A stretch of 48,344 bases of DNA from Reclinomonas americana ATCC 50394 (lineage: Eukaryota): assembly GCA_048213135.1 (NCBI GenBank), contig PS015096.1, positions 82,678 to 131,021 on the forward strand. Reading direction: 5' to 3'. This document shows positions 14,507 through 46,228 of the stretch, piece after piece. Under the pieces are notes generated by a model. That model had not been told where the DNA came from and did not search any database. It saw only the letters and a list, made by a program, of their open reading frames with translations. The first letter of the stretch is position 1; each line of letters opens with the position of its first letter. The translations under genes were made by a program, and so were the position numbers.

Positions 14507-16058
14507 ATGGGCAAACGCGCGCTGCTTGTCATCGATGTGCAGTACGACTTTTGCGAAGGCGGCAGTCTGGTAAACACACACACGCGGAAACACACCACCA
14601 ACACAAACTCTCTGGTCAGACTCACACACACACACTCTCTCTTTCTGTCTCTCACGCAGGCAGTGCCTCACGCCAGCGACATTATCCCTCTGATCAACGG
14701 CCTCCAACCACTCTTTGAGGTCGTGATCTGGTCACAAGACTTCCACCCGGCCGAACACATGTCATTTGCCACTGTGCAACAGCGCCCTGCGTTCTCGGTG
14801 ATGGAGCTGGAGGGCGGTCACACGCAAGTCATGTGGCCCGTGCACTGTGTGCAGGGAACGCGAGGGGCGGAGTTTCATGAGGAGCTGCAGGGGAGGGAGA
14901 GGTGAGGGGGAAGGGCAAGGGAGGGAGAAGGGGGAAGGGGGAGAGAAGGGGGAAGATAGAGACAAGTGAGAGAAGCAACGAGGACTCGGAGTTTTTTGGG
15001 CTTCTGAATGAGTGGCAGGGAGGGGGTGGAGGATAGGAGAACAGAGGAGTGAGGAAAACAGCATGTGCGAGCTTCTGAGGAAAGGACGAAGGAGACAAGA
15101 GATGGGGACAAGTGAGAGAAGCAAGACGGACTCAGGGCTTCTGAATGAGTGGCAGAGAGGGCGTAGGAGACAAGAGATGATAGGAGCGAGGAAGGGAACA
15201 TGTGCGACCTCCTGAGGAAAGGATGGAGGAGACAAGAGATGAGGACAAGTGAGAGAACGAGGACTCGGGAGTTTTTTGGCTTCTGTGTGAGTGCGGGAGA
15301 CAAGGGATGGAAAGAAGAAAGCAATAGAATGCTGAGCGACGCAGAAGTGAGGAAGTGGATGGAAGGGCATAATGAGCAGCAGTGGGTTGACGAAGGAACT
15401 CCTCTTCCACCTCTGCCTTCTTCTTCTTCCTCTTGTTTTCTTCCTCTTCTTCTTCTTCTTCTTTTGTTCTTCTTCTTCTTCGATCATTCTTCCTCTTCTT
15501 CTTGGCTCTTCTTCTCTCTTTTTCGCCTCCTCCTCCTCCTCCTCCTCCTTCTTCCTCCTCCTTTCTTCTCTCTTCGATTGCGAGTTGTCTCATGCTGTTG
15601 TTGATTTCCACACCAGGGCCATTGTCGTGCAAAAGGGCACCGATCCGCGCATCGATTCGTACTCGGCCTTGTTGCGTGGATTCCCTTTTCTCGTCTCTTG
15701 CCTGCTGCTCACTCCCGCCTCATGGCCGCAGTTTCGACAATCTCCGACTCAACCAGACGCAACTGGATCACTTGCTGAAGGAGCACGGCGTTGACACTGT
15801 GTACGTGTGCGGCCTCGCCACCGACTACTGCGTCAGCTTTACGGCTGCCGATGCGGTGGATCTCGGCTACAAGACGTATCTCATTGAGGTGCGCGTCTGT
15901 GTTTGTGTGTCTGGTGACATCAAGTTTCATTCCACCGACGCTCTCTGTGTGTGTGCCAGGATGCATCGCGTGGCATTGACGAAAAGGGCATCGCGAGTGC
16001 GTTGGAGCGGCTGCGTGGTCTCGGTGTTGAAGTGCTACAATCGAGCGAGGTCAAGTGA
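14507..16058 (+). CDS. PNC1: Nicotinamidase/pyrazinamidase (isochorismatase family)
   Basis: Exons 14507-14569, 14660-14901, 15617-15670, 15732-15888 and 15960-16058 splice in frame. Motifs: ALLVIDVQYDFCEGGSL, QDFHP, WPVHCVQGTRGAEFH, QKGTDPRIDSYSAFFDN, GLATDYCV. Asp-Lys-Cys triad present. Confidence 0.95.
14955..15310 (+). repeat. Purine-rich ~140-bp degenerate tandem repeat (~2.5 copies) in PNC1 intron 2
   Basis: GACAAGTGAGAGAA recurs at ~14961, ~15106 and ~15244. GGCTTCTGAATGAGTGGCAG and CTGAGGAAAGGA also recur. Confidence 0.8.
15400..15575 (+). repeat. (CTT)n/(CCT)n polypyrimidine tract in PNC1 intron 2
   Basis: Visible runs of cttcttctt and cctcctcct. Confidence 0.85.
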
Positions 16059-27625: not shown

Positions 27626-30600
27626 TTACCATGCACGGGAGCCGGCGGCAGAACTGTGCCCCGACGCCGCGGCTGTTGTGGTGGTGGTGGTGGTGGCTGA
27701 TGAACTAGGGCCACCGGCGGCAGCGGCAGTGGCAGCGATGCCAGCCACACTTGCATCGTGATCGCCCGCCGACTGCTCCATGAGCTCCGCCAGCTGCTCA
27801 TCCTCTTGGGCGACGGCCAACAACGACATGAGCTGATCGCGTAGCCGTTGAATCTCGGCCCTCTGCAAGTCGATGATACGATTGTTCTCGTCGACTTGCA
27901 CCATCAGTTCGTGGAAGCGGTCTGGTGACACCATGGGCGTCGGTCTCCGACTGTGAGGGCACGAAAAATACATCAGTCCACACGCTCTTCCTGGTCCCAC
28001 AACAGAGCAGAGCAAAGCAAACCTCGACGCCGCCGAGTGCAATCGCTGCGCAAACTTTGATGTGCCAGCCGTTCGATGGTGCGCCTCTAGAGGCGCTGTG
28101 ATTGGATGGAACTCGTCAGGCCAACGATACAGAAATGCCAGGCAAAGCGACGCAGAAAACGCAACTCGACAAGCGACCCGATTGCGACGCTGTCGGTTCG
28201 ACAGACATGATGTGCGTGACGCGACTGAAGGGCCGCGAAGAAGCAAAGGTAGAGGCATACGAATCCGCACTGCAGCAAGTACAAGTCAGCACCATGAAAG
28301 AGACGTCGTCTCGCTCGTGTGGCGTCCACACCTCATGACTCGTGCTTCTGGCATACGCGGCTCCACGCTGATTGAGAGAGGAGACAGGCATTGAGCGAGA
28401 AGGATATCGGGTAGCGAATCAGACGGGTGAGACGCACCTCTGCGCACGCTGCAGTGCTGGTGTCTCTCCGCGTTCCGACTTGTGAGACGGCGACTGCGAC
28501 ATCGAGACGCTGCCGGAGGCTGCCTGGCCCGAGAGCTCCATGATGCGCGTCTCCAGCTTCTGGATGCGCCCGCGAAGGACGTGATTCTCTCGGCGGAGAC
28601 CATTGAGCTCGCTGCAGCATGTGTTTGTGTGAGAAGACAGCAATGCAGAAGTAGTCGGCATACGCGGCGACGCAACTTCATCGTGTCCTTATTCTCGCTC
28701 AGTTTTCTCCGCTGCTCCAGAATGCCCTTGCGCTCCAACTCTTCCTTGCGCTTGCGCAGGTACTCGTTGTTGCGTTCTAGGTACTCCTTCTGCCGTTGGA
28801 ATTCTGCGGGGAGGAACAAAGTCAGCTTACCCGTACTTTCTATGCCTCTACTTCCGCGCGCGCGCACACCTTGCACTTTCAGGTCGTCATTCGGGCGCTT
28901 GACGTACGACTCCTCGCCGAGGACGTATCGCTTGTACCTACGCAGTGACATCAAAAACAACGCTGTTAGACGCGCATGACCAAGCCGACGGGAAACAACT
29001 GACACAAGCCNNNNNNNNNNNNNNNNNNNNNNNNNNNNNNNNNNNNNNNNNNNNNNNNNNNNNNNNNNNNNNNNNNNNNNNNNNNNNNNNNNNNNNNNNN
29101 NNNNNNNNNNNNNNNNNNNNNNNNNNNNNNNNNNNNNNNNNCACTCATCATCGTCCTTCTTTTGCAGAGCCCAAGGAGATGGAGATTGAGGAGCTCAACA
29201 AGCAAGTCTCCGATCAGGAAGAGCAGCTGAACAAGCACCGCGAGGAGCACTTTGCACTGCAAAAGGCCTTCAAGGAGAAGAAGAGCATCATTGAGTCGCT
29301 CAACAAGCAGATCAAGGAGCAGCAGGCGGGCATGTCGGAGCGCAACAAGTACGTGTCCCAGTTCAAGACCGACCTGGTGCGTCTCATGCAAGAGGTGGAT
29401 GAGGCGTCGTTCAAGGACAATTTCAAAGACATGTTGCGTNNNNNNNNNNNNNNNNNNNNNNNNNNNNNNNNNNNNNNNNNNNNNNNNNNNNNNNNNNNNN
29501 NNNNNNNNNNNNNNNNNNNNNNNNNNNNNNNNNNNNNNNNNNNNNNNNNNNNNNNNNNNNNNNNNNNNNNNNNNNNNNNNNNNNNNNNNNNNNNNNNNNN
29601 NNNNNNNNNNNNNNNNNNNNNNNNNNNNNNNNNNNNNNNNNNNNNNNNNNNNNNNNNNNNNNNNNNNNNNNNNNNNNNNNNNNNNNNNNNNNNNNNNNNN
29701 NNNNNNNNNNNNNNNNNNNNNNNNNNNNNNNNNNNNNNNNNNNNNNNNNNNNNNNNNNNNNNNNNNNNNNNNNNNNNNNNNNNNNNNNNNNNNNNNNNNN
29801 NNNNNNNNNNNNNNNNNNNNNNNNNNNNNNNNNNNNNNNNNNNNNNNNNNNNNNNNNNNNNNNCACACACAGAAGAGGGGCACAGAGAGCGATCTCGGAC
29901 GAGAGTGACGCACCGAGATCTTTCGAGAGTTTCTGCAACTTGAAGCCAAACACCACGCGGAACTTCTCCAGCTCCTGGTTGCGGCGCTTGAGTTGGTTGA
30001 TTTGCGCCTCTTTCGCCACGATGCTGTCGTCCTTTTGCTTCATCTCGCGCGTGATGACACTCTGCACAATTCACAGGGCGTGAGTGAAACCTCCTCACTT
30101 TGCCGAGCAGAGACGACAACAATGGAGGTAAAGACACGTACCATGCGACCCTCGCGTTCGTTCGTCTGGCGCAACAACGCAGCCTTCTCCTCGTCGCGTT
30201 GTGCAATGATCTTCTTGAGGCTGACAATTTCCTGCTTGCACGACGACACCTTGTTGCGCAGGAACACCAGTTCGCCACGCTTCTGCACATCGGCCATCTT
30301 CTGCTTCTCCAATTCCATCTGGTGCTGCATGCGAATGTTCTCCAGCAATTCCCGATGCTCCTCCTCAATCATGGCAATGCTGGCGTCGTAGGTGGCCGTC
30401 TCCGTTTGCAGCTCTTTCCGCAGGTGCTCAATGTTCATGTTGAGTTCCTGTGTGTGTGTGTGACAGCACCGAGTCAGCGACAATGTGGCACAGAATGTAG
30501 AGTGTGTCAACGCACATCCATCTCGTCGAGGTGCGTGTTCTGCACTTGATCAATCTCCTTCTTGTGCAGGCCCTGGATGTCCTCGATGAATGTGTCTTTC

Positions 30601-33600
30601 TCCACCTCCAAAAAGTCCTTTTCTTGCGTCAGCTTCTTCAGATGCAGTTGCTGGATCTGCAGCTTTTGATCGTACAGTCGTTGCAGGTTCTGAAGACGGA
30701 CATGCGATTCAGCAAAGAGGCATAGTGTAGCAGCAACGACAAGAGATGGTGGGATCGCACCTGCGCCGCATCAGTGTGGTCTCTCTTCAGCCGCCGAATG
30801 CGCTCCTCGAGTTTCAGCTGCAACTCCAATTTCTCCTCCTCCAGTTTCTCAATCGTGCGCACGCGAAAGAAAAGGTAAGCAATCACACACGCACACGTGC
30901 TGGCACACGACAAAATGCATATCTTCTCTTGGCTTCCAGCTCGGCCTCTTGTGCGTGGTCCACGCTGTCTTTCGTCTGCTCAGCGAACCGCTTCCGCTCG
31001 ACCGCAATCTCAAAGTCTGTGTTCACCACCGACAACATCAGCGAAATGACAACAACAGTCGCCACCACAGAACACGACGTGCAAGTACCTGACTGAGCGC
31101 GGACTTCGGCGAGCTTGGCCGACAGATCTTCGATAGTGGCCTCGCGCTCCTCCAACTCGGCGCGAGAAATCAGTCCAACTCCCATGATGCGCGACATCTG
31201 CGTGCGGAAAAGGAATGAGTGCACGCCAGAAAATCCACAGGCAACGTGCAGGACGCAAACCTGTGTCGTGTCAGGCAACCTGCGCTCCGAGGCCCACATC
31301 TGCACCATGCCTTCGTCGCCGCCCGAGATGATGAGACCCTCGCTGACCGAAGCCGCCATGCACCGCACCGAGCCTGAACGGGCATGTGTTTAGTGCACTC
31401 AAGAGTGGAGGCGCTGCACATCATCAACAGCACTGACCAACATGGGCCGGCAGGCTGACCAACGGTGTGGTATCCGAGCTGTTCAGGCGGCCGGTGGTGG
31501 CATCTAGTTGGTACGCCATGATGCGACCCGTGTCGGTGCCAACAAAGAGAGTCGTGCGTGATCGCGACAACACGACCTGCAGTGGCGGGCATTGAGGACA
31601 AAGGATAGACAGAGTGTCGACCACACGCAGCAAGTGCACGCACCCGAGTGAACGAGTAGCCGTACACGCTGAGCTCGCTGACGACTTGACCACTGACGAT
31701 TTCGCGCAGCACGCTGCGGCCGCGACTGGAACCACACACGTAAATCTGTCCCCGCATGCCGTACACCGCGCTCGAGTACTGGAAATCCTTGTCGACCGCC
31801 TCGCTGTCGGCCACGCGCGTTCCAGAAATGATTTCCCACTCAAACACTGCGCCGTCGTAGCCACACGAGACAATGCGCAAGTCGTCGGCCGACCACGCCA
31901 CAGAGCGCACAGGTCCGACATGGCCACGGAAGCTCGCCCGTTGCTCCAGTGCGTACGTGTCCACAATGTGAATGGTGCTCCCACTGCACACGGCAAACAA
32001 GTGTCCACCGTTGCTGAAGCGAACCTACACACACGCAGCATCGACAGGTCAGACCCATTCGAGTCTCCTTCACACAGCAGCAAGAGAGGACGGACGCACC
32101 ACGCGGACATTACGCAGGTCCATCGAGCCCACCAGCTGCAGGTCGTTCATCATCACAAAATACATGCCCACAAAGTGATTCGAGCCGAGCACCAAGAACA
32201 ATCCACTAGGATGGAGGGATATGGACAGCGGCTCCTCCGTCATGCGCTTGCTCACTGAGCACTGGCGTTCCGACAGGTCCCACAAGCGAACGCACTCATC
32301 CTGCACGCCACAAACAGAGAAATGCCGTGAGTGCACCACACAGAGTGCCAGAGCACAGCATCGAGCAGCTTCACCTCTGAGCACGTGGCAACCAGTGGCC
32401 TCTGTACACATGTGGCCACGTCGTAGATGCGGGAATTGTGCGACTGCGCCAGCGCCGTGCACGAAATTGGCTCATTGTCTTGCATGATGCTGACATCTGC
32501 GGAGAGAGGGAGGGAGAGAGCACGGGTGCCGTCAGTCCGCACGATGACCTCACAATCCCTTCGCGCAAGTCACGCAACTCGTGAGGGGGAACGAGGCAAT
32601 CGTCTTGTTGGCCAAGAAGAGTGCCAGCGACTCCTCCGAGGGCGACACCGCCATGTCGGTAACCGACTCGCGCTCCATGCAGTACACCGATCTCATGCTA
32701 ATGTACGGACGAGTGCGATCACGGCTCTTTTCAAACACCTGTCCACAAGCAGCACGCACCCATCATCATCCACCGAGTGATACTTCTACAAAGAAAAAAA
32801 TGCACGCGGGCGACGCACCCCCACATAGCCATTCTCGCCACCAGCCAAGAAGCCCTTGGAGTAGAGACACAGCTTGGTGATGGGCGTGGCGTCGGGAAAC
32901 ACGTTCGGGATGAAGCTCACGAGCTGCGAATAGACCAACACGAATGAGTTTCTCTCTGATTCAACGACGACCACACATCCACCACAGACCTTGCCGCCGT
33001 CAAAGATGAACACACTGGCGTCGTTGGTCGACACAAGGAAGCGCTCGGTCGACACCCACGCGTGGTCGGTGATCAACTGCGATGAGTAGCGCTCCCAGTC
33101 GGGTTGGATCGGCTTCAGCACCTTCTCCGTGTACTTCCACAGTCGGAGAGCCTTGGGTCCCGTGGTGACTACTTGATCAAAGGATCGCGGATTCATGGTG
33201 GCCTTGGTGACAAAGCCCTCGCCACCCACTTGTATGCTGCCCTCGACCTGCCACAAATCGTTTAAGTATCCAAGCACGCAGACAGACATAGGCAGAAAAC
33301 AGACCTTGCCCGTCTCCGTGTTGATGTGTGACATGGTCTGCCCGGCGTCCGACCCAATGGTGATGAGATGTCGGTGTGTGCGCGTGCCGAAAGCCACAAA
33401 CTTGGCGTTGCACGTGTCACCGCTGGGAATGGTGCGACGACGGCGCACCGAGGACTTGGTCACACGGAAAATGTAGACCTCGGTGGTTTCGTCGCTGCTG
33501 CTGACGCCACTGGTGCCTCCCGGCGCACTGTGCATCGACATGGCTCCCATATCCGCCGACGCATTCACCCCCGCCGCACTGTTGCCGGCGGCACCGACTC

Positions 33601-34442
33601 CCGAACCCGCCGCTCCCGACATGCGCAGCCGCGAGGCACCGACAGCTCCGCTGCCCGACGCCACCACGGCCGACGAACCGAGTGCTCCTGCCGACTGCGC
33701 CGCTCCACTCTGCCGCACCAGCACGCCGCTGACGGCAATGTATGCGGCGCCTGCCAGCTCCCCAGAGCCCTGCTCTTCCTCATCTATTTGCGACGCACAC
33801 ATCAGTCATCACTGCGACGCTGATCACACGACATGCCACCGACGGCGTACCATCGTCACCCTCATCCAGCGCGCCAGTGTCCTCTCCGCCACCGCCANNN
33901 NNNNNNNNNNNNNNNNNCCGCCACCACCACGGGCGCTCGCTGAGCCACCAGCACCGCCAGCGCCCTTGGCCGCCGCCTGCTTCATGAGGGGCCGACAGAC
34001 CGAGATGGACGCGATGCGCTGCACGTGCTCCGGCAGCGGAATCGTCTCGATGCGTCGGGTATCCACATTGAGCAGACACACTTGCCTGCCGAGGATCATC
34101 AGCGACGCACGATCATCATCACTTGCACTGCAGTTTTCTTTTCTCACCTGCCAACCGAGTACACGATTCGCGTCGAGTCCAGCCACTCGACACATGAGCC
34201 CGTGCCCGTGTCATGCACGCCAAAGATGTGACTGCGACGCACGCACGCACGCACCGCAGTGTGAATGGACACCGCACAAAGCACGCAACGGTTGATCGAC
34301 GCGCGCGAGAGAGAAAACGCAACAAGAGCTCGCACTGCACACCCGACCCAGTGCCACTGCTGGCTGCTGCTGCTGCTGCTGCTGCGGCCGCTGCTGCACC
34401 ACCGCCACCTGTGATGTCGGCTGAGGATGGACGCGAGGCCAT
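27626..34442 (-). CDS. CFAP57: Cilia- and flagella-associated protein 57 (WDR65): WD40 propellers plus coiled coil
   Basis: WD40 exons include SHNSRIYDVATCVQRPLVATCS, ISLHPSGLFLVLG and FRGHVGPVRSVAWSADDLRIVSCGYDGAVFEW. Coiled-coil signatures include KEAQINQLKRRNQELEKFRVVFGFKL, EFQRQKEYLERN and RIIDLQRAEIQRLRDQL. Confidence 0.9.
29168..29432 (+). CDS. CFAP57: CFAP57 internal exon lying on the opposite strand in a gap-flanked segment
   Basis: The exon EPKEMEIEELNKQVSDQEEQL...FKDNFKDM has splice phases that join exactly to the minus-strand exon ending 29914 (G|AG=E) and the one starting 28937 (AT|G=M, then YKRYV). Confidence 0.85.
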
Positions 34443-35059
34443 CTCTCTGTGACTCAAACTGCACAACGGTGGAGGTGACGGGTGTCACATCAGCCCATCA
34501 TCATGGTCACTTCATTTCACGCCTTCTCCGTCCTCGCCACCCAGTGCCGTCAGCCATCGCGGGAGNNNNNNNNNNNNNNNNNNNNNNNNNNNNNNNNNNN
34601 NNNNNNNNNNNNNNNNNNNNNNNNNNNNNNNNNNNNNNNNNNNNNNNNNNNNNNNNNNNNNNNNNNNNNNNNNNNNNNNNNNNNNNNNNNNNNNNNNNNN
34701 NNNNNNNNNNNNNNNNNNNNNNNNNNNNNNNNNNNNNNNNNNNNNNNNNNNNNNNNNNNNNNNNNNNNNNNNNNNNNNNNNNNNNNNNNNNNNNNNNNNN
34801 NNNNNNNNNNNNNNNNNNNNNNNNNNNNNNNNNNNNNNNNNNNNNNNNNNNNNNNNNNNNNNNNNNNNNNNNNNNNNNNNNNNNNNNNNNNNNNNNNNNN
34901 NNNNNNNNNNNNNNNNNNNNNNNNNNNNNNNNNNNNNNNNNNNNNNNNNNNNNNNNNNNNNNNNNNNNNNNNNNNNNNNNNNNNNNNNNNNNNNNNNNNN
35001 NNNNNNNNNNNNNNNNNNNNNNNNNNNNNNNNNNNNNNNNNNNNNNNNNNNNNNNNNNC

Positions 35060-36525
35060 ACAAATCGCGACACGGCCTTGTCGTCTTGCGCGGCGAAGAA
35101 GTAGGTGGTGGGCCGGCGGTGAATGCGACAAGTGCGAGCGATTGTGTCCCACCAAAATTTCTCGTGATTGGCGACGTCGACAAAGGAATACACCGCCGTG
35201 GCTGTGTGCGCTCGTGCAGGTGAGATGCGTGGCATGCGCAGATAGTACTTTCGAAGAGGAAAGGGGCGCAACTGGTGCCATCGGTGCGGCGCGTCTGCTG
35301 GCCCGAGAACGCAAACAGCAAATCCCGATTCCACTCGGCCAGCGAGGGTGCTCCGGCGCCCGCTCGTCGCCGGAGAGCCACAAACAGATTGCTGCGCGTG
35401 TCCTCGTTCTGCAGCGTCAGCAAGTAGGCGCCTGACAGCATGACTACGCCCTCGGGTTCACTCGGCAGCCGCGGTGTCTGCAGGCCGGTGAATTGGCCGC
35501 GCAGCGTAAAGTACTTGTAGCAGTGGTCGTGCTCGTCGGCGATCAGCACCTGTCCCAGTTTCTGGTCGACGAGGATGCTTTCGACCTTTTTCAGCATGCC
35601 CGGATCTGTGTTGTCGCAGCGTGAGCGATGATCGAGAAGGGAAAACAGAAGGTGCGTGACGGTGGTAAGTGACCTTCGTTGGGTCCAAAAGTCTGCACAA
35701 AGACAGGCTCCACGCGCCCACCGCCGTACAGTGGCGCGCGCACCTCGAATACGCACACTCGACGCGCCACGATCAGTTCCTTCGGGTAGCCAGGCGGCAC
35801 GGCCTGATCGGTCACAAACACCCGCGCTCCATAGTACGTGGTCTCCGCCGACAAGCCGTACGGCCGGAGCAGAATGTCTTCCCCAAACACCGCCACGCAC
35901 TCCATGCTCGGCAGTCGGGCAATCTACTCACACCACGTCACAACGGCAGCAAAGAAGCGCGTGTGCGCGCGCGCGGACACGTGTCACTCAAACCTGCACG
36001 CGATGCGCATCCCGCTCGACAACAAGCAGCAGCGGAAGGCCGCCGATCGTCAGCTGCAGAATGCCATTCGGCCGCTTGAACGGCACACACATCCTGCCAC
36101 GCACGTGTAAGTGGGGCGCGCGAGGAGAGGCGATCATGGACAGAGGGACGCAACTGTGCATGCTCGGCCACACGTGCACCGGTCAACGCATCAAAGGCCA
36201 CCACGAGATTGGACGACTTGGCTGTGGCATACACCAGCGGCCGCGAGAAGCTGCCACACACACAATGAGTCCTCTCTCCCACACACAAACGAGAGCAGCG
36301 CACGTGCAGACGCAACATCGACTGCTGCCACGGTGTCAACGAGTCAATGTTGTCGCGCTTGTTGGCGTCGGGCACAAACACTGCGTCCTCGCGCAACGAC
36401 TGAGCGCGATGCAGCCACCACTCACTGTCGTTGTCTTCCTCCTGTGCACTGGCGTGCATGATGGCGATCGTGAGGATCGCGAGGAGGAGGGCGATGATGG
36501 AGACAAGTCGCCTTCTCGACCACAT
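35060..36525 (-). CDS. Secreted beta-propeller phytase-like protein (Xanthomonas PhyA type), multi-exon, 3' end in gap
   Basis: Signal peptide MWSRRRLVSIIALLLAILTIAIMHASA. Motifs occur in PhyA order: DNIDSL, ATAKSSNLVVAFDA, FKRPNGI, VVERDAHRVQV, FGEDILLRPYGL, VFVTD, KVESILVD..VLIADE, EPEGV, FSGQQTRRTDG, FAAQDDKAV. Confidence 0.8.
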
Positions 36526-36592
36526 GTGAAAAAATTTAAAGAGTGATTGAGGAAATTTACACGCAACACACACAGTCGCACACACAGAAGGA

Positions 36593-37866
36593 ATGGCGAG
36601 CAGTGCTGGAGTGGCCAGTGGGTCGGGCAGTGGCGGCGGTGTCACAGCGGAGAATGTCGATGATCAGTTGCTCATTCCGTGCATCAACTTTAGTCTGGTG
36701 CGCAGCAGTGTGTCTGCGCGTGTGTTTGAAATGCAAGGCTGCTCACTGTGTGCTCTTGCTTGGTGTGACATACACGCAGGTGGCACCAGGTGTGTGTGTG
36801 ATCTTCTCTCATCATCATGTGTGCATTGTGATTGACTGTGATTCATCATCGCACAGGTGTTTTCCGGTGTGTTTCATCTGCTGTCTCGTACGCACACTCG
36901 CACACACACACACGCACCTGACACACGCACTCGTCAGCTCTGGGTATCCCAACAAGAAGAACTTTCCGTTCCTGAAGAAACTCGGCGTCCGCACGATTTT
37001 GTTGCGTGACGGCTGTCTGGTTGCTAGCTGCGTTGGTGGTGGTGGTGCTGAGGTCGAGCAGGTATCTGTGTCCTGAGGAGTACGCAGAGGCCAACCGTCG
37101 GTTCTGCGAGGAGAACGGGATTGTTATCAAGCAGCATGGCGTGGAGGGCAACAAGGTGCCGTGCTCGCCACCGCAGTGACTTGGCCTCCTTCTCTCGCCA
37201 CCTGCTGAACGCTCTCTCTGCCATACACAGGAGCCGTTTGTCGACATCCCGGAGGAGGTGATTCGTGAGGCATTAGTGGACTTGCTTGGTACGTGCGTGT
37301 ACGTGCGTGTGAATGATTGGTGCGTCGTGTCGTCTCATGTTTCTCTGGCAGACGTGAGGAACCATCCAGTGCTGATTCATTGGTGAGTGCGAGGGGTGCT
37401 GTCTTCTTCGTTCTTGTCGACACTCACCCATCTCTCGTTGCACAGCAACAAGTGAGTGTCGGACTGAACTGCCCACCTCTGATATTAGTTGCTGACCTTC
37501 CGTCGCTCGCAGGGTTCTTTTCACTCGACCGTTGCCTCTTTTTGTGAACGAGAATACTCACACAGTTTGCTCACTTGCATGTGTGTGTGTCTGCGTGCAG
37601 GGCAAGCACAGAACAGGAGTCGTGGTTGGGTGCATTCGCAAGGTGCAAAAGTGGTCGCTTACTTCAATCTTTGACGAGTACCGGCGATTCGCCGGCACCA
37701 AGGTCCGCATGTTGGATCAGCAGGTGAATCCAGCGACGTTGCTCGTTCATGTTCATGCGCCGTTGACTCACCCATGTGTGGACTGGTTGTGTGTCAGTTT
37801 GTGGAGTTGTTCTCAGTGGAAAAGATCCCCTACGACAGGCAACACAAGCCCAAGTGGTTGTGGTGA
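36593..37866 (+). CDS. SIW14: SIW14/PFA-DSP atypical dual-specificity phosphatase (inositol pyrophosphate phosphatase)
   Basis: Exons 36593-36697, 36780-36789, 36857-36866, 36938-37000, 37062-37155, 37231-37288, 37352-37382, 37446-37451, 37513, 37601-37723 and 37798-37866. Spliced product: LIPCINFSLVAPGVFRSGYP..FLKKLG..YLCPEEY..GNKEPF..NHPVLIHCNKGKHRTG..W..IFDEYRRFAG..DQQFVELF. Confidence 0.93.
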
Positions 37867-38090
37867 GCGAGCGCAGGCACGGGAAAGAAAAACGAGAGTG
37901 CGACCATAACAAATGAAGCAAAAAAGAAGTTCCAACACGCGCGCACACGCACACACACATGCGACTGTATTGTGTATGTGTGGTGCACTACGGGGCCCAG
38001 TCATCGTCCATGGTTGCCTTGGACTTGCGCCGCTTCTGCCATTCGCGTACACACAATGTCAGTTTTCTCTACACGCCGCGAAATAGTAGG

Positions 38091-38587
38091 TCACGAAGAA
38101 CGCACTGCTGGTGGCTCATCCTCGACGAATTCGTCATCACTGAGGTCACCGTCCATCCGATGATCGTCGCCATTGGCCTGACCTGCACCCTCGACCAGAT
38201 CTGTGTCCTGTTCGCGCTGTGCACGCTTCAGTGCCGCCACTGGCGACAACACCGTTCCGTCGGCGAAACGAGTCGGACGAGTTGCCCGTCGTGCGCGACT
38301 GACAGACTCAGATGGCGACGCCGCCGACGCGCCTGGCAAAACACACGGCGCACACAAGTCAGCAGCACGTCTTAGCCCCCGTCCATAATAAACACACGCA
38401 CACACACACACCGGTGACAGGCTCGGGGGATTGCGGCGACATGGGCGCAGAGCCTTGCGTGCCCGGTGTGCTGCAATGGCGCGGTGGATTCCGTCGTGCG
38501 ATAGCGAGTGGGGGAGAGGTTGGCGACGCGGGAGACATTGCACTGGCAGCTGTCGATTCCCGTCGCGCGATCGCGACATCACTCGTC
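38091..38587 (-). CDS. 3' exons of a minus-strand gene, probably the low-complexity C-terminus of VPS72
   Basis: The frame is open from the gap (TSDVAIARRES...SPEPVT|GASAASPSES...DDEFVEDEPPAVRSS*) with one GT-AG intron. Confidence 0.5.
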
Positions 38588-40464: not shown

Positions 40465-41784
40465 TCAACTCTCATCCACTTCTTCGTGAAGAAAACGATG
40501 CAGCAACATCGCAGCCTCCTCCACCACAAAACACCGCAGCACAAGGCGCGGCAAGGATTCTGCGTCTTGCAATTCGTCGTCAACGTCGAGTGCCGCCACG
40601 GCCAGGCGCGCCACCTGCAATTCATGCCACATGCCGGCAAAGCACCGCAGATATGCGCCAAAGCTGCCACCGACTGGCGCCAGGTCGGCAGCCGTCTGTC
40701 CGCGCTCATTCACAGCAAACAGGAGATCGGGGTGCGAGTTGGCCAGCAGTCGGGCGATGGCCTCGTGTCCCTCTGATGCGGCGATGTGCAACGCAGTGCT
40801 GCCTTTTAGGAACGTCAAAGTGCTGGTCCGAGTGACGGCAAATACCACCTCTGGAGGGCAACGGCGCGAATCGGCCAGCAGCCACTCCACCACGCGCACA
40901 TGAGCCTCTCCCGCAGCGACCATCAACGGCGTCAAGTCACGCAGCTCTGAACGCTCACCGTACTTTCTCCTTAACGCGTGCTCGGCAATGTACTGACGTC
41001 TCGGGCGCATCAGAAAACTCGGAGGCTGCTGCGCGCTGTGCACACCGAGCTCGTCCACCAGATACTGCAACACATCAAGGCGGCCCTGGCAGGCAGCCAG
41101 ACGCACCAAGTCTTTGTGAGCATCGAGTACTCGCCGAGGTCCCAGACGCGTCACCATTCTGCGCAGCGCCTCCACATCACCGTCGATCGTCATGGTGTAT
41201 GGACACAGATGTTTCGCCAGCAATTCTGCCACTCCCGACATGGAATAGGGGTGATCAGCCACCTCCAGTGGCGTCACGGGTGGCAGTCGGTCTCCACATT
41301 CAGTTACGTACTCCTTGCAAGAAAGCTGATAGAGCAAATCGGGATGCGCGGCAATCAACAACCGTGTCACCTCAACATCCGCACCAATAGCAGCGTGGTG
41401 CAGTGCCGTGAATCCGCGGTGATCCGTTGCTCGCACCATCTCCGCCGAGCATCGTCGCTCGTCGGCCAACAGCCATGCCACGGCCGACGGAGTGCCTCGA
41501 TGCGCAGCCGACATCAGTGCCGTGCGACCTTTCGCATCCCGCCTGGTGGCCAGCTCGGGACCGATTCCACTCTCCTCCCACATGTAGTCAAGCGCACCAA
41601 GACTGCCGTGCTCAGCGGCGTTCTGGAACAGTGTGCATCCAAAGAAAGTGTCCACGTGTCGCAACACGCGTGGGCCACATCGTGCCACCAGTGTGCGCAG
41701 CCCGTCGACATCGTCCAGGGCGACGAGATAGCGAGCCTCCTTAATGCCAGCAGCCACATCAGCGGAGGATGACGTGCAGCCCAT
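40465..41784 (-). CDS. Ankyrin-repeat protein, copy 1, intronless, N-terminal MGCTSSS
   Basis: 439-aa ORF with ankyrin motifs GRTALMSAA, GFTALHHAA, LTPLMVAAGEAH, GSTALHIAASEGH and NERGQTAADLA. Confidence 0.9.
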   Translation of the reverse strand: MGCTSSSADVAAGIKEARYLVALDDVDGLRTLVARCGPRVLRHVDTFFGCTLFQNAAEHGSLGALDYMWEESGIGPELATRRDAKGRTALMSAAHRGTPSAVAWLLADERRCSAEMVRATDHRGFTALHHAAIGADVEVTRLLIAAHPDLLYQLSCKEYVTECGDRLPPVTPLEVADHPYSMSGVAELLAKHLCPYTMTIDGDVEALRRMVTRLGPRRVLDAHKDLVRLAACQGRLDVLQYLVDELGVHSAQQPPSFLMRPRRQYIAEHALRRKYGERSELRDLTPLMVAAGEAHVRVVEWLLADSRRCPPEVVFAVTRTSTLTFLKGSTALHIAASEGHEAIARLLANSHPDLLFAVNERGQTAADLAPVGGSFGAYLRCFAGMWHELQVARLAVAALDVDDELQDAESLPRLVLRCFVVEEAAMLLHRFLHEEVDES

Positions 41785-41892: not shown

Positions 41893-43218
41893 TCAACTCT
41901 CATCCACTTCTTCGCGAAGAAAACGATGCAGCAACATCGCAGCCTCCTCCACCACAAAACACCGCAGCACAAGGCGCGGCAGCGACTCTGCGTCTTGCAA
42001 TTCGTCGTCGACGTCGAGTGCCGCCACGACTAGGCGCGCCACCTGTAGTTCATGCCACATGCCGGCAAAGCACTGCAGATATGCGCCAAAGCTGCCACCG
42101 ACTGGCGCCAGGTCGGCAGCCGTCTGTCCGCGCTCATTCACAGCGAACACGAGATCGGGGTGCGAGTTGGCCAGCAGTCGGGCGATGGCCTCGTGTCCCT
42201 CTGATGCGGCGATGTGCAACGCACTGCTGCCTTTCAGAAAGTTTAAAGTGCTGGTCCGCGTGACGGCAAATATCATCTCACGAGGGCATCGGCGCGGATC
42301 GGCCAGCAGCCACTCCACCACGTGCAGATGACCCTCTCCCGCAGCGACCATCAACGGCGTCAAGTCACGCAGCTCTGAACGCTCACCGTACTTTCTCCTA
42401 AACGCATACTCGGCAACGTACTGACGTCTCCAGTACGGTGGGCGCATAAGAAAACTCGCAAGCTGCTGCGCCCTCTGCACACCGAGCTCGTCCAACAGAT
42501 ATTGCAACACATCAAGGCGGCCCTGCCAGGCAGCCAGACGCACCAAGTCTGGGTGGGCGTCGAACACTCGCTCAGGTCCCAGGTGCGTCACCATTCTCCG
42601 CAGCGCCTCCACATCACCGACGGCGGTCATTTCATACGGACAGAGATGTTTTGCCAACAACGCAGGCACAGCAGACACAGAGGACTCGCGCTTAGCCACT
42701 TCCAATGGGGTACGGGGCGGAACTTGTCTTCCATCCGCGGCAGTGAGCTCGGCAGAGAGTGTGTACAGCAGATCGGGGTGTGCGGCCATCAACATCTGCG
42801 TCGCCTCCACATCCGCACCAACGGCAGCGTGATGCAGCGCCGTGAATCCCTTGCAGTCCGTCGCTCGCACCATCTCCGCCGAGCACCGTCGCTCGTCGGC
42901 CAACAGCCATGCCACGGCCGACGGAGTGCCTCGATGCGCAGCCCACATAAGTGCTGTGCGACCTTGCGCATCCCGTGTGGTGGCCAGCTCGGGACCGATT
43001 CCACTCTCTTCCCACATGTAGTCAAGCGCACCAAGACTGCCGTGCTTGGCGGCGTTCTGGAACAGTGTGCATCCAAACACAGTGTCAACGTGTCGCAACA
43101 CGCGCGGGCCACATCGTGCCACCAGTGAGCGTAACCCGCCGACATCGTCCATAGCGACGAGATAGTGAGCCTCCTGACTGCCAGCAGCCGCATCAGTGGA
43201 GGATGACGTGCAGCCCAT
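41893..43218 (-). CDS. Ankyrin-repeat protein, copy 2 (tandem paralogue)
   Basis: 441 aa from MGCTSSS at 43218, collinear with and highly similar to copy 1. Confidence 0.9.
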   Translation of the reverse strand: MGCTSSSTDAAAGSQEAHYLVAMDDVGGLRSLVARCGPRVLRHVDTVFGCTLFQNAAKHGSLGALDYMWEESGIGPELATTRDAQGRTALMWAAHRGTPSAVAWLLADERRCSAEMVRATDCKGFTALHHAAVGADVEATQMLMAAHPDLLYTLSAELTAADGRQVPPRTPLEVAKRESSVSAVPALLAKHLCPYEMTAVGDVEALRRMVTHLGPERVFDAHPDLVRLAAWQGRLDVLQYLLDELGVQRAQQLASFLMRPPYWRRQYVAEYAFRRKYGERSELRDLTPLMVAAGEGHLHVVEWLLADPRRCPREMIFAVTRTSTLNFLKGSSALHIAASEGHEAIARLLANSHPDLVFAVNERGQTAADLAPVGGSFGAYLQCFAGMWHELQVARLVVAALDVDDELQDAESLPRLVLRCFVVEEAAMLLHRFLREEVDES

Positions 43219-43690: not shown

Positions 43691-45639
43691 ATGAACTTCT
43701 TCCCCTCGCCCACCAAGGAGCTTGGCTCCTCTGCTTTCAGCACCCCACTGAGCATCAGCTCTCTGACCAATGCCTCCGCGCTGCCTCGCTGGCAGCGACG
43801 ACTGATTCACGACCAGTCGGAGGCTGAGTCAACCAGCACCACCACCACCACAATCACCGCCCCTTTCTCGTCTATCACCCCCTCTAGCTGCACAGGTACC
43901 CCCTCGAAGAAGACCGCCACGAAGACGCCGTCAAAGAGCCCAGCGGTGAGTTGCAATTGCATGAAAGGCACGCGTAACGGTCGGGCGCGTGCTCACACCT
44001 TTTCTCTCTCTCTCGCAATCGTGCAGGCCGACCGCTTCATCCCCAACCGCTCTGCGATGGACCTCGACGCGTCGGAGTTCTCACTGGTCTCCAAGGAGAA
44101 CTCGATGCCGACGGATGCCGGCCACGTCGAGTACACCAACTCGCTGGCCTCGTCGCTCTTTGCCGGCCGTGCCGCAGGCGACTCCAAGGTGCTGGCTTCC
44201 GCAGCAAGGCGCCGACGCCGGCTGAGGGCCACGACAACCACAACATGCGCGTGCTGTACACCCAGAACAAGCTGGCCGCCGGCAACGGCAAGGCTTCGCG
44301 CAAGTCGCAGCGCACCATTGCGCAGGCGCCGGAGCGCATCCTCGATGCCCCCGACATGATCGACGACTACTACCTCAACCTACTCGACTGGAACGCGTCC
44401 AACATTATGGCGGTGGCTCTGGGCCCGGCCGTCTACCTGTGGAACGCGGAGACTGGCGCCGCTGAGCGCCTCATGCAGTGCAAGCAGGACGATCATGTGA
44501 CCTCGATTGCCTGGGTGCAGCAGGGCAACACCCTGGCCATTGGCACCAACAACTCGACGGTGCAGCTGTGGGACACGGAGAAGGGCCGCAAGCTGCGCAC
44601 GATGCGCGGCCATGCCTCGCGCGTCGGCGCCCTGGCCTGGAACCAGCACATTCTGTCGTCGGGCTCTCGCGACTCGATGATCTTCCACCACGACGTGCGC
44701 GTCACCCAGCACCANNNNNNNNNNNNNNNNNNNNNNNNNNNNNNNNNNNNNNNNNNNNNNNNNNNNNNNNNNNNNNNNNNNNNNNNNNNNNNNNNNNNNN
44801 NNNNNNNNNNNNNNNNNNNNNNNNNNNNNNNNNNNNNNNNNNNNNNNNNNNNNNNNNNNNNNNNNNNNNNNNNNNNNNNNNNNNNNNNNNNNNNNNCGTG
44901 GCCACCCTCGAGTCTCACACCCAGGAGGTGTGCGGACTCAAGTGGTCGCTGGACGGCCTGCAGTTGGCGTCGGGCGGTGAGTGTGTGGCAGACATACCCT
45001 TCTCAGAAGCTTTTGTGGTGTGGTGTAACTTACAACAATCTTGCATCAATCTACAGGCAACGACAACCTGCTCAACATCTGGGACGCTGGTGCCAGCACC
45101 CCGCGCTTCACCCTCAACCAGCACCAGGCGGCCGTGAAGGCGCTGGCCTGGTGCCCGTGGCAGGCGAACCTGCTGGCGTCGGGCGGCGGCACTGCCGACC
45201 GCACCCTGCGCTTCTGGAACACCCAGACTGGTGCTTGCGTCAACTCGATCGACACCGAGTCGCAGGTGTGCTCGATCCAGTGGAACCCGCACGACAAGGA
45301 GCTGGTGACGAGCCACGGTTTCAGCCAGAACCAGCTGGTCGTGTGGAAGTACCCCACCCTGGTCAAGATGGCGGAGCTCACTGGTGAGTCTTCTTTCTTT
45401 CTTTCTTCTTCTTCTTCTTCTCATTTCGTGTCACTCACCTCGGCGCTCCCGCAGGCCACACCTCCCGTGTGTTGCACATGGCCCTGAGCCCCGATGGCAC
45501 CTCGGTTGTCAGCGCTGCTGGTGACGAGAGCCTCCGCATCTGGCGCCTCTTCGAGGTGCCGACTGCGGCCAAGACTGCGAAGCGAGACGACGGAGCTTCG
45601 CGCTCGGCCATGCTGCGCGGTGTCGGACTGATCCGCTAA
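43691..45639 (+). CDS. CDC20: APC/C co-activator CDC20/fizzy (one apparent frameshift near 44197)
   Basis: C-box DRFIPNRS, a KEN motif, [43 protein letters not shown] and C-terminal IR tail (GLIR*). Introns 43946-44026, 44977-45056 and 45384-45454. Confidence 0.95.
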
Positions 45640-46228
45640 GCGCATCGCAAGGCTCGGGTATCAACGGCAGGAGCTGCGAGGTGTGACCGACTATGGCACG
45701 GGATCCAATCGTCGATCGCCGTTGCCAGTCGAATCACCCCCCGCAGTCACCACCACCACCACCACCCTCCTCGAGTGCGAGGGTTGGCGGCGCACCTTCC
45801 CTCGCCAGGTGCGCCCACAAGTATTGTCACTCAGCAGCAGCAGCAGCAGCAGCAGCAGACAGGCAGGAGAGAACACAGAACGCAGCGGTGGTCAGAGAGG
45901 CACACAGGCAGGCAGTGTTGTTGTTGTTGTTATGTGTGTGCGTGTGCGTGTTTGTATGTCTGTGCGTGTAGAGATGTGTGAGGCTGCGTGTGTGTGTGCG
46001 TGATAATAACCGGTTGACTCGAAAGAGTGCAACGCGGCACGGGTGTGACGGTGCAAATCACCCAGTGTGAGCGGCGGGAGACATCCGTGTCTCCTTCCCC
46101 GCCACACGAAAACCGCTCGACCTCTTTTCATCTCGCCAACAAGAAAAAGAAAACAACATGCATGCATGCATGTGTGGGGGTGATATACTTACGCGCGTGC
46201 GCTCTCTCTAATGATGGGGTGAAGAACA

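Follow-up and report, generated by a model that had tools for sequence, protein, structure and literature searches.

A candidate single-nucleotide exon in the catalytic-loop region of a protist SIW14 gene

The SIW14 gene described here raises the question of whether one nucleotide can be an exon, or whether a base is missing from the genome sequence at that point. The window, by which we mean the whole stretch of DNA that was analysed (48,344 bases), is draft eukaryotic scaffold with 5,223 N in 17 N-gaps. The gene lies on its forward strand at 36593-37866, from the start codon at 36593 to a stop codon that ends at 37866. A preliminary description of this DNA proposed that the catalytic Cys-X5-Arg loop is spliced as CAT TG|C AAC AA|G|GGC AAG CAC AGA, with the isolated G at position 37513 forming an exon of its own. 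Joining the segments by coordinate indeed gives ...IHCNKGKHRTG..., and the positions in that description were exact throughout. In our judgement the spliceosome probably does treat G37513 as an exon of one nucleotide, with an ordinary short intron on each side.

A protein search with exon 10 as the query (37601-37726) returned 268 significant matches among 277 candidates. The top match, 100% identical over exon 10, was the 189-residue EukProt protein P0001 (record EC792894.1.p1, 'ORF type:complete'). Record names in this style belong to ORFs called from ESTs, the 'EC' prefix presumably being that of GenBank ESTs; P0001 is EST-derived. P0001 reads HCNKGKHRTG at the loop and agrees with the locus at every residue (189 of 189) over 11 exons. 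Judged by this protein, the transcript keeps its frame with a Lys codon at the junction, and the EST originates from this locus. Two heteroloboseans, Acrasis kona (93%) and Willaertia magna (88%), were among the best named matches of exon 10.

P0001 matched Pfam PF03162 (Y_phosphatase2) with 198.4 bits, the cut-off being 27 (E 7.7e-59), and the match takes in nearly the whole profile, from position 1 to 163 of 165. Among solved structures it matched 7mok, DSP1 of Arabidopsis (E 1.6e-63), 1xri, At1g05000 (E 8e-63), and 6byf, yeast Siw14 (E 2.6e-50), and its Cys-X5-Arg loop aligned with that of 7mok. The assignment to the Siw14/PFA-DSP family, with HCxxGKHRTG as the signature, therefore held, and the prediction that the gene product is a PFA-DSP/Siw14-type phosphatase is sound as a reading of the sequence.

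The gene is crowded with introns: its 570-nt coding sequence is divided by 10 introns into 11 exons, four of them 10 nt or shorter. The exons measure, in order, 105, 10, 10, 63, 94, 58, 31, 6, 1, 123 and 69 nt, and the introns 82, 67, 71, 61, 75, 63, 63, 61, 87 and 74 nt. The unique GT-AG mapping of P0001 places exon 1, with the start codon, at 36593-36697. It is followed by micro-exons at 36780-36789 (flanking introns of 82 and 67 nt) and 36857-36866 (67 and 71 nt), then by exon 4 at 36938-37000, which ends at the donor ttt|GTTGCG, exon 5 at 37062-37155 and exon 6 at 37231-37288. Exon 7 (37352-37382) breaks off two bases into the catalytic Cys codon. The two micro-exons near the start of the gene are 10 nt each; in the CDC20 and ankyrin genes nearby, exons run to hundreds of bases. 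Introner-like similarity was not found among the SIW14 introns, in which a comparison turned up two short chance repeats only.

Around the catalytic loop the exons become smaller still. Intron 7 (37383-37445, 63 nt, GTGAGT..CAG) carries a branch-like CTCAC motif 19 nt from its 3' end and leads to the 6-nt exon 8, CAACAA (37446-37451). This micro-exon, which had been proposed at the same position, lies on the unique P0001 path, agrees with a separate check of the segment, and codes the last base of Cys, the Asn and the first two bases of Lys. Intron 8 (37452-37512, 61 nt) runs from caa|GTGAGT to CGCAG, with a branch-like CTGAC at 37492-37496 whose A stands 17 nt upstream of the acceptor at 37512. 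Next comes the proposed exon 9, the single G at 37513, with which the Lys codon of HCNKGKHR would be completed. Intron 9 (37514-37600, 87 nt) begins G|GTTCTT, ends TGCAG, has CTCAC motifs 27 and 40 nt from its 3' end, and lies in phase 0 after Lys126. Exon 10 (37601-37723), which opens GGC AAG CAC AGA and codes GKHRTG...LDQQ, and exon 11 (37798-37866, 69 nt with the stop codon) complete the gene, all of these features lying on the forward strand. The canonical split of the 149-nt interval at CGCAG-G-GTTCTT and the branch-like CTGAC before the G are thus both present as first described. Omitting 37513 changes the frame, as the preliminary description had said of joining 37451 directly to 37601, and the altered frame meets a stop. 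The further claim of that description, that skipping the base would switch the enzyme off, follows logically from the frameshift and premature stop as a predicted loss.

How many splicing paths can yield P0001 from this locus? The protein with its stop codon was threaded through 36401-38000, under exact residue identity and with GT-AG introns of 20-400 nt. Exactly one solution was obtained, which uses introns 37452-37512 and 37514-37600, so that the only canonical route through the locus uses G37513 as an exon. At the nucleotide level, the segment 37352-37723 with GT/GC-AG introns of at least 10 nt gave one solution with G and none with A. A relaxed threading of the whole gene (GT/GC-AG, introns of 10-1500 nt, start from 35101 on) gave 2,944 solutions. 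Among those listed, they differed only by shredding into pieces of 1-5 nt upstream of about 36611, and the introns from 36698 on were common to all. Since unconstrained threading yields tiny 'exons' by chance, we relied on the constrained runs and on estimates of chance. The one-base exon as the third base of Lys is, then, supported both by the cDNA-derived protein and by the sole GT/GC-AG threading. The G is flanked by AG and GT (CAG|G|GT at 37510-37515), and at the level of the protein it is a transcript base contiguous with neither neighbouring exon, since P0001 reads Lys-Gly here and direct joining shifts the frame.

Paths with only two introns between exon 7 and exon 10 do exist at the sequence level; there are six, and each relies on an intron of 148 nt whose ends are TG-AG, GT-CA or AG-GC. 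The genome could accordingly be correct and a single non-canonical intron be removed in one step, each of the three placements yielding the right mRNA. Against this, all 17 introns mapped in the window are GT..CAG, the length would be atypical, and the presence of an acceptor, a G and a GT inside the interval would be left unexplained. To our knowledge the three end pairs also fall outside the usual minor intron classes, and we regard such an intron as very improbable. Insertional RNA editing, or an EST from a second, uninterrupted copy of which this copy is a pseudogene, has nothing positive in its favour. The complete identity of P0001 with the locus over 11 exons and the canonical ends kept in all ten introns speak against both. 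We know of no insertional editing of nuclear transcripts, and the two possibilities together seem to us barely credible.

A different matter is the genome sequence itself. The P0001 protein fits a real one-nucleotide exon and a missing genomic G alike, the EST being known here as its protein. On the second explanation, the assembly would have lost one G. That base would belong at the donor, where the exon would then end in AAG ahead of GTGAGT, or within the run of Gs at the acceptor. A micro-exon of 6 or 7 nt would then be followed by one GT-AG intron of ~148 nt, and the AG-G-GT in its middle would be coincidental. We judge this unlikely, and the evidence on it comes from the lengths and signals of the introns, from related genes and from the quality of the assembly.

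For comparison we assembled 15 verified introns: the eight undisputed introns of SIW14, and seven from two other genes of the window, defined via orthologs. The nicotinamidase gene contributed 14570-14659 (90 nt), 14902-15616 (715 nt), 15671-15731 (61 nt) and 15889-15959 (71 nt), and CDC20, on the forward strand, contributed 43946-44026 (81 nt), 44977-45056 (80 nt) and 45384-45454 (71 nt). The 715-nt nicotinamidase intron is packed with purine-rich low-complexity repeats and is the sole verified intron outside the 61-90 nt mode. In SIW14 itself the other eight introns span 61-82 nt with a median of 69, which bears out the earlier remark that the 149-nt interval is about twice the local intron size. 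Because 14 of the 15 verified introns measure 61-90 nt, and none falls between 91 and 700 nt, lengths of 61 and 87 nt fit this set and one of 148-149 nt does not. A missing G would thus require an intron of twice the usual size.

The splice signals were scored with donor and acceptor position weight matrices (PWMs) trained on the 15 verified introns. Every acceptor mapped in the window is CAG (17/17, both disputed introns included). The acceptor at 37512 scored 6.2 bits, inside the verified range, a value equalled or exceeded by one of 57 decoy AGs in the gene; it outscores the other four AGs of the 149-nt interval, the acceptor at 37600 scoring 3.1 bits. If a G were missing and the interval were one intron, this strong internal acceptor would invite mis-splicing. 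Branch-like motifs were found in both intron 8 and intron 9. A crude scan for a strong donor, a branch and YAG was also tried, in which 30 of 124 first-acceptor distances were 60-79 nt; its tail was noise and it was left unused.

The donors are less one-sided. That at 37452 is strong (8.0 bits), and it has A at -1, which none of the 15 other verified donors has (12 of the 15 have G there); an extra G would restore the usual base and so favours an assembly error. The donor at 37514 is weak, which favours the same explanation. It scores 0.4 bits, level with the weakest verified donor (GTTGCG at 37001); 52% of 124 decoy GTs do at least as well, and its T at +5 occurs in none of the 15 verified donors. 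When intron 8 is taken as already removed, the score of this donor rises from 0.4 to 4.3 bits, intron 8 altering only the exonic -2/-3 context. The hexamer GTTGCG, with T at -1, is used as a donor in two unrelated genes, SIW14 intron 4 (37001) and nicotinamidase intron 3 (15671). Its use at both sites indicates that weak donors with T at +3 do occur in the window.

Would a 149-nt intron contain such a pattern by chance? We simulated introns of this length with Markov models trained on the eight introns or on the region itself (40,000 per model). An AG-G-GT with both halves of 55-95 nt arose in 0.76% and 0.53% of them, respectively; with CAG and a branch-like motif in addition, the values fell to 0.17% and 0.07%. 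The 35 AGGGT sites on both strands of the window give an expectation of 1.6% over 39 eligible positions, or 0.54% for CAGGGT, and no AGGGT was found in 14 verified introns (1,654 nt). A missing G therefore also needs a mid-intron CAG-G-GT with its own branch-like motif to have arisen by chance, at 0.07-1.6% on these estimates.

Among 36 related metagenome loci, with a best identity of 69%, the catalytic loop is uninterrupted in 21 and uncovered in seven. Two loci (L017 and L023) split it after Gly-Lys. Five others (L025, L026 and L028-L030) split it after Asn-Lys by a single phase-0 intron, as L024 probably does also. In these five, which are 60-68% identical in the best segment, the exon ends AAG before GT and the acceptor reads CAG|GGC; the intron in L028 is 222 nt long. 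Judged by sequence, the junction in the window looks like this arrangement minus one G, and the occurrence of exactly AAG|GT...CAG|GGC with a single intron in L025-L030 counts in favour of an assembly error. The position of intron 9 is the same as that of the single intron in these loci. No one-nucleotide exon was found in any of the 36 loci, relatives that are too distant (at most 69%) for a test of conservation.

The quality of the draft bears on the missing G from both sides. The scaffold with its 17 N-gaps is a draft, and the one read-derived contig placed on it from three small sequencing runs, which shows no differences from the window, spans 36600-36946 only, with the junction outside that span. 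An apparent error of the very kind in question occurs in CDC20 (43691-45640, forward strand), where a conserved exon carries an apparent 1-nt deletion at 44194-44197 with no room for an intron. The CDC20 orthologs P0123, P0128 and P0136 read in one frame across this site (~44195), and the frameshift is most likely a base dropped in a short run of the draft assembly. It is the one frameshift in ~5.3 kb of coding sequence checked (SIW14, 570 nt; CDC20, ~1,533; nicotinamidase, ~612; two ankyrin paralogs, 1,317 and 1,323). The CDC20 error, however, sits in a fragment of 1.1 kb with an N-gap on each side, whereas SIW14 lies in a 3.5-kb gap-free stretch (35059-38587).

Two further observations concern the neighbourhood. 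The ankyrin-repeat genes are tandem intronless paralogs on the reverse strand (40468-41784 and 41896-43218) with an N-terminal MGC motif, and are 84% identical over 439 residues. At 30000-33800, also on the reverse strand, lies a long multi-exon gene with WD repeats and coiled coils. A word-indexed search with one of its WD-repeat exons (32987-33241, reverse strand, 85 residues) gave no significant match among 54 candidates, and the gene thus supplied no introns for the statistics.

The weight of these points can be put roughly in numbers. A dropped G would be a rare event that must strike about six specific bases, roughly 1 in 1,000 at the observed rate of one error per 5.3 kb. The donor-context and weak-donor arguments perhaps return a factor of ~50 to the missing-G case. 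The likelihood ratio that remains favours two introns by about 100 to 1,000. The prior for a one-nucleotide exon is very low in general and is not so in this gene, because three other exons of 6-10 nt lie on the same path. The 6-nt and the two 10-nt exons of that unique path indicate that very small exons are spliced in SIW14. We infer that the genomic sequence is right at both G-runs of the junction.

If G37513 is an exon, its inclusion can be explained by the properties of the two introns. Under intron definition, each of these short introns would be recognised singly, as a unit in itself. For the donor at 37452, which is strong, the partner would be the nearer and stronger acceptor at 37512, served by its own CTGAC branch, and not that at 37600. 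Because the acceptor at 37512 and the donor at 37514 physically overlap, they would not both be engaged at once, and the two introns are probably removed successively. As to the order, we infer that intron 8 goes first, which would place AAG in front of GTTCTT and so improve the weak donor of intron 9. Joining 37451 directly to 37601 would shift the frame and truncate the enzyme ahead of the catalytic Arg.

Such a process would resemble recursive splicing with one base retained. In recursive splicing, which works through ratchet points or RS-exons, a 3' splice site abuts a 5' splice site; a ratchet point keeps no base and serves very long introns. As at ratchet points, removal of the upstream part at the SIW14 site rebuilds a better 5' splice site (here by the 0.4 to 4.3 bits given above). 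Unlike them, the SIW14 site keeps one coding base, and both introns are tiny. Two related structures were considered and rejected. A recursive splice site in the strict sense, that is a zero-length exon, is ruled out, as G37513 is retained between AG and GT. A stwintron, in which an inner intron breaks up the donor, branch or acceptor element of an outer one, is ruled out too, since a single base separates the end of intron 8 from the GT of intron 9 and no intronic signal is split.

The common position of intron 9 and the single intron of L025-L030, with intron 8 lying one base upstream, points to intron 8 as a lineage-specific gain. Taken together, a tentative reading, which we hold as possible and somewhat doubtful, is that the spliceosome here is in effect without a minimum exon size, and that a lineage-specific intron entered the catalytic-loop codons a single base ahead of a phase-0 intron already there. 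In that reading, the exon would be retained only by splicing of the recursive type in an obligate order, with removal of the upstream intron creating AAG|GT for the weak downstream donor. Competition between 37512 and 37600 would then set the choice of active enzyme or frameshifted transcript, and might act as a switch, at the level of splicing, on inositol-pyrophosphate turnover.

Exons of one base have precedents. Single-nucleotide splicing was proven for APC11 of Arabidopsis thaliana by mutation of a minigene and re-sequencing of the genome, and by the same account one-base exons are possible in Arabidopsis and in rice cells (Guo & Liu 2015, PMC4674806). As that paper describes it, APC11 is like SIW14 in having one base between AG and GT within what appears as 'one intron', essential for the frame and preceded by a branch-like A; there too, the cDNA holds a base that is non-contiguous in the genome (PMC4674806). 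In APC11 the single base, an A, lies 333 nt from the start of a 422-nt interval (PMC4674806), whereas SIW14, a protist gene, has a G with a near-minimal intron on either side (61 and 87 nt) and a 6-nt exon as its neighbour. The APC11 exon was proven by re-sequencing and mutation (PMC4674806); the SIW14 exon rests on the genome sequence and an EST-derived protein.

Closer in form is the one-nucleotide exon reported in CYP621A P450 genes of Fusarium, conserved in 20 orthologs and supported by SRA reads (Nelson & Syed 2026, PMC12940212). As reported, it shares with SIW14 a genome of short introns, an apparent 'intron' more than twice the median, the arrangement CAG|G|GT, and a G that completes a codon in a conserved motif (PMC12940212). 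Its support differs, in that 20 orthologs and SRA reads stand behind CYP621A (PMC12940212), and one genome and an EST-derived protein behind SIW14, with 0/36 loci alike. The Fusarium paper presents its own case as the second one-base exon (PMC12940212), and catalogues of micro-exons have been published for plants. No one-base exon in a protist was found in the literature as judged by titles and the opening parts of abstracts. The SIW14 exon would thus join a known, very rare kind, and the mechanism itself is not new.

One-base exons mark the lower limit of what the spliceosome can keep, and two proven or well-supported nuclear cases have been published. For annotation, a gene caller that joins 37451 to 37601 produces a frameshifted or truncated SIW14. 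Caution is due in the opposite direction as well, for a single base dropped from a draft assembly can mimic the signature of a one-base exon. With its two near-minimal introns and the 6-nt exon beside them, the SIW14 locus would be a natural substrate for studying the order in which physically overlapping splice sites are used. If true, the exon would be a protist case with cDNA support, and the ability to splice a single nucleotide would not be confined to plants and fungi.
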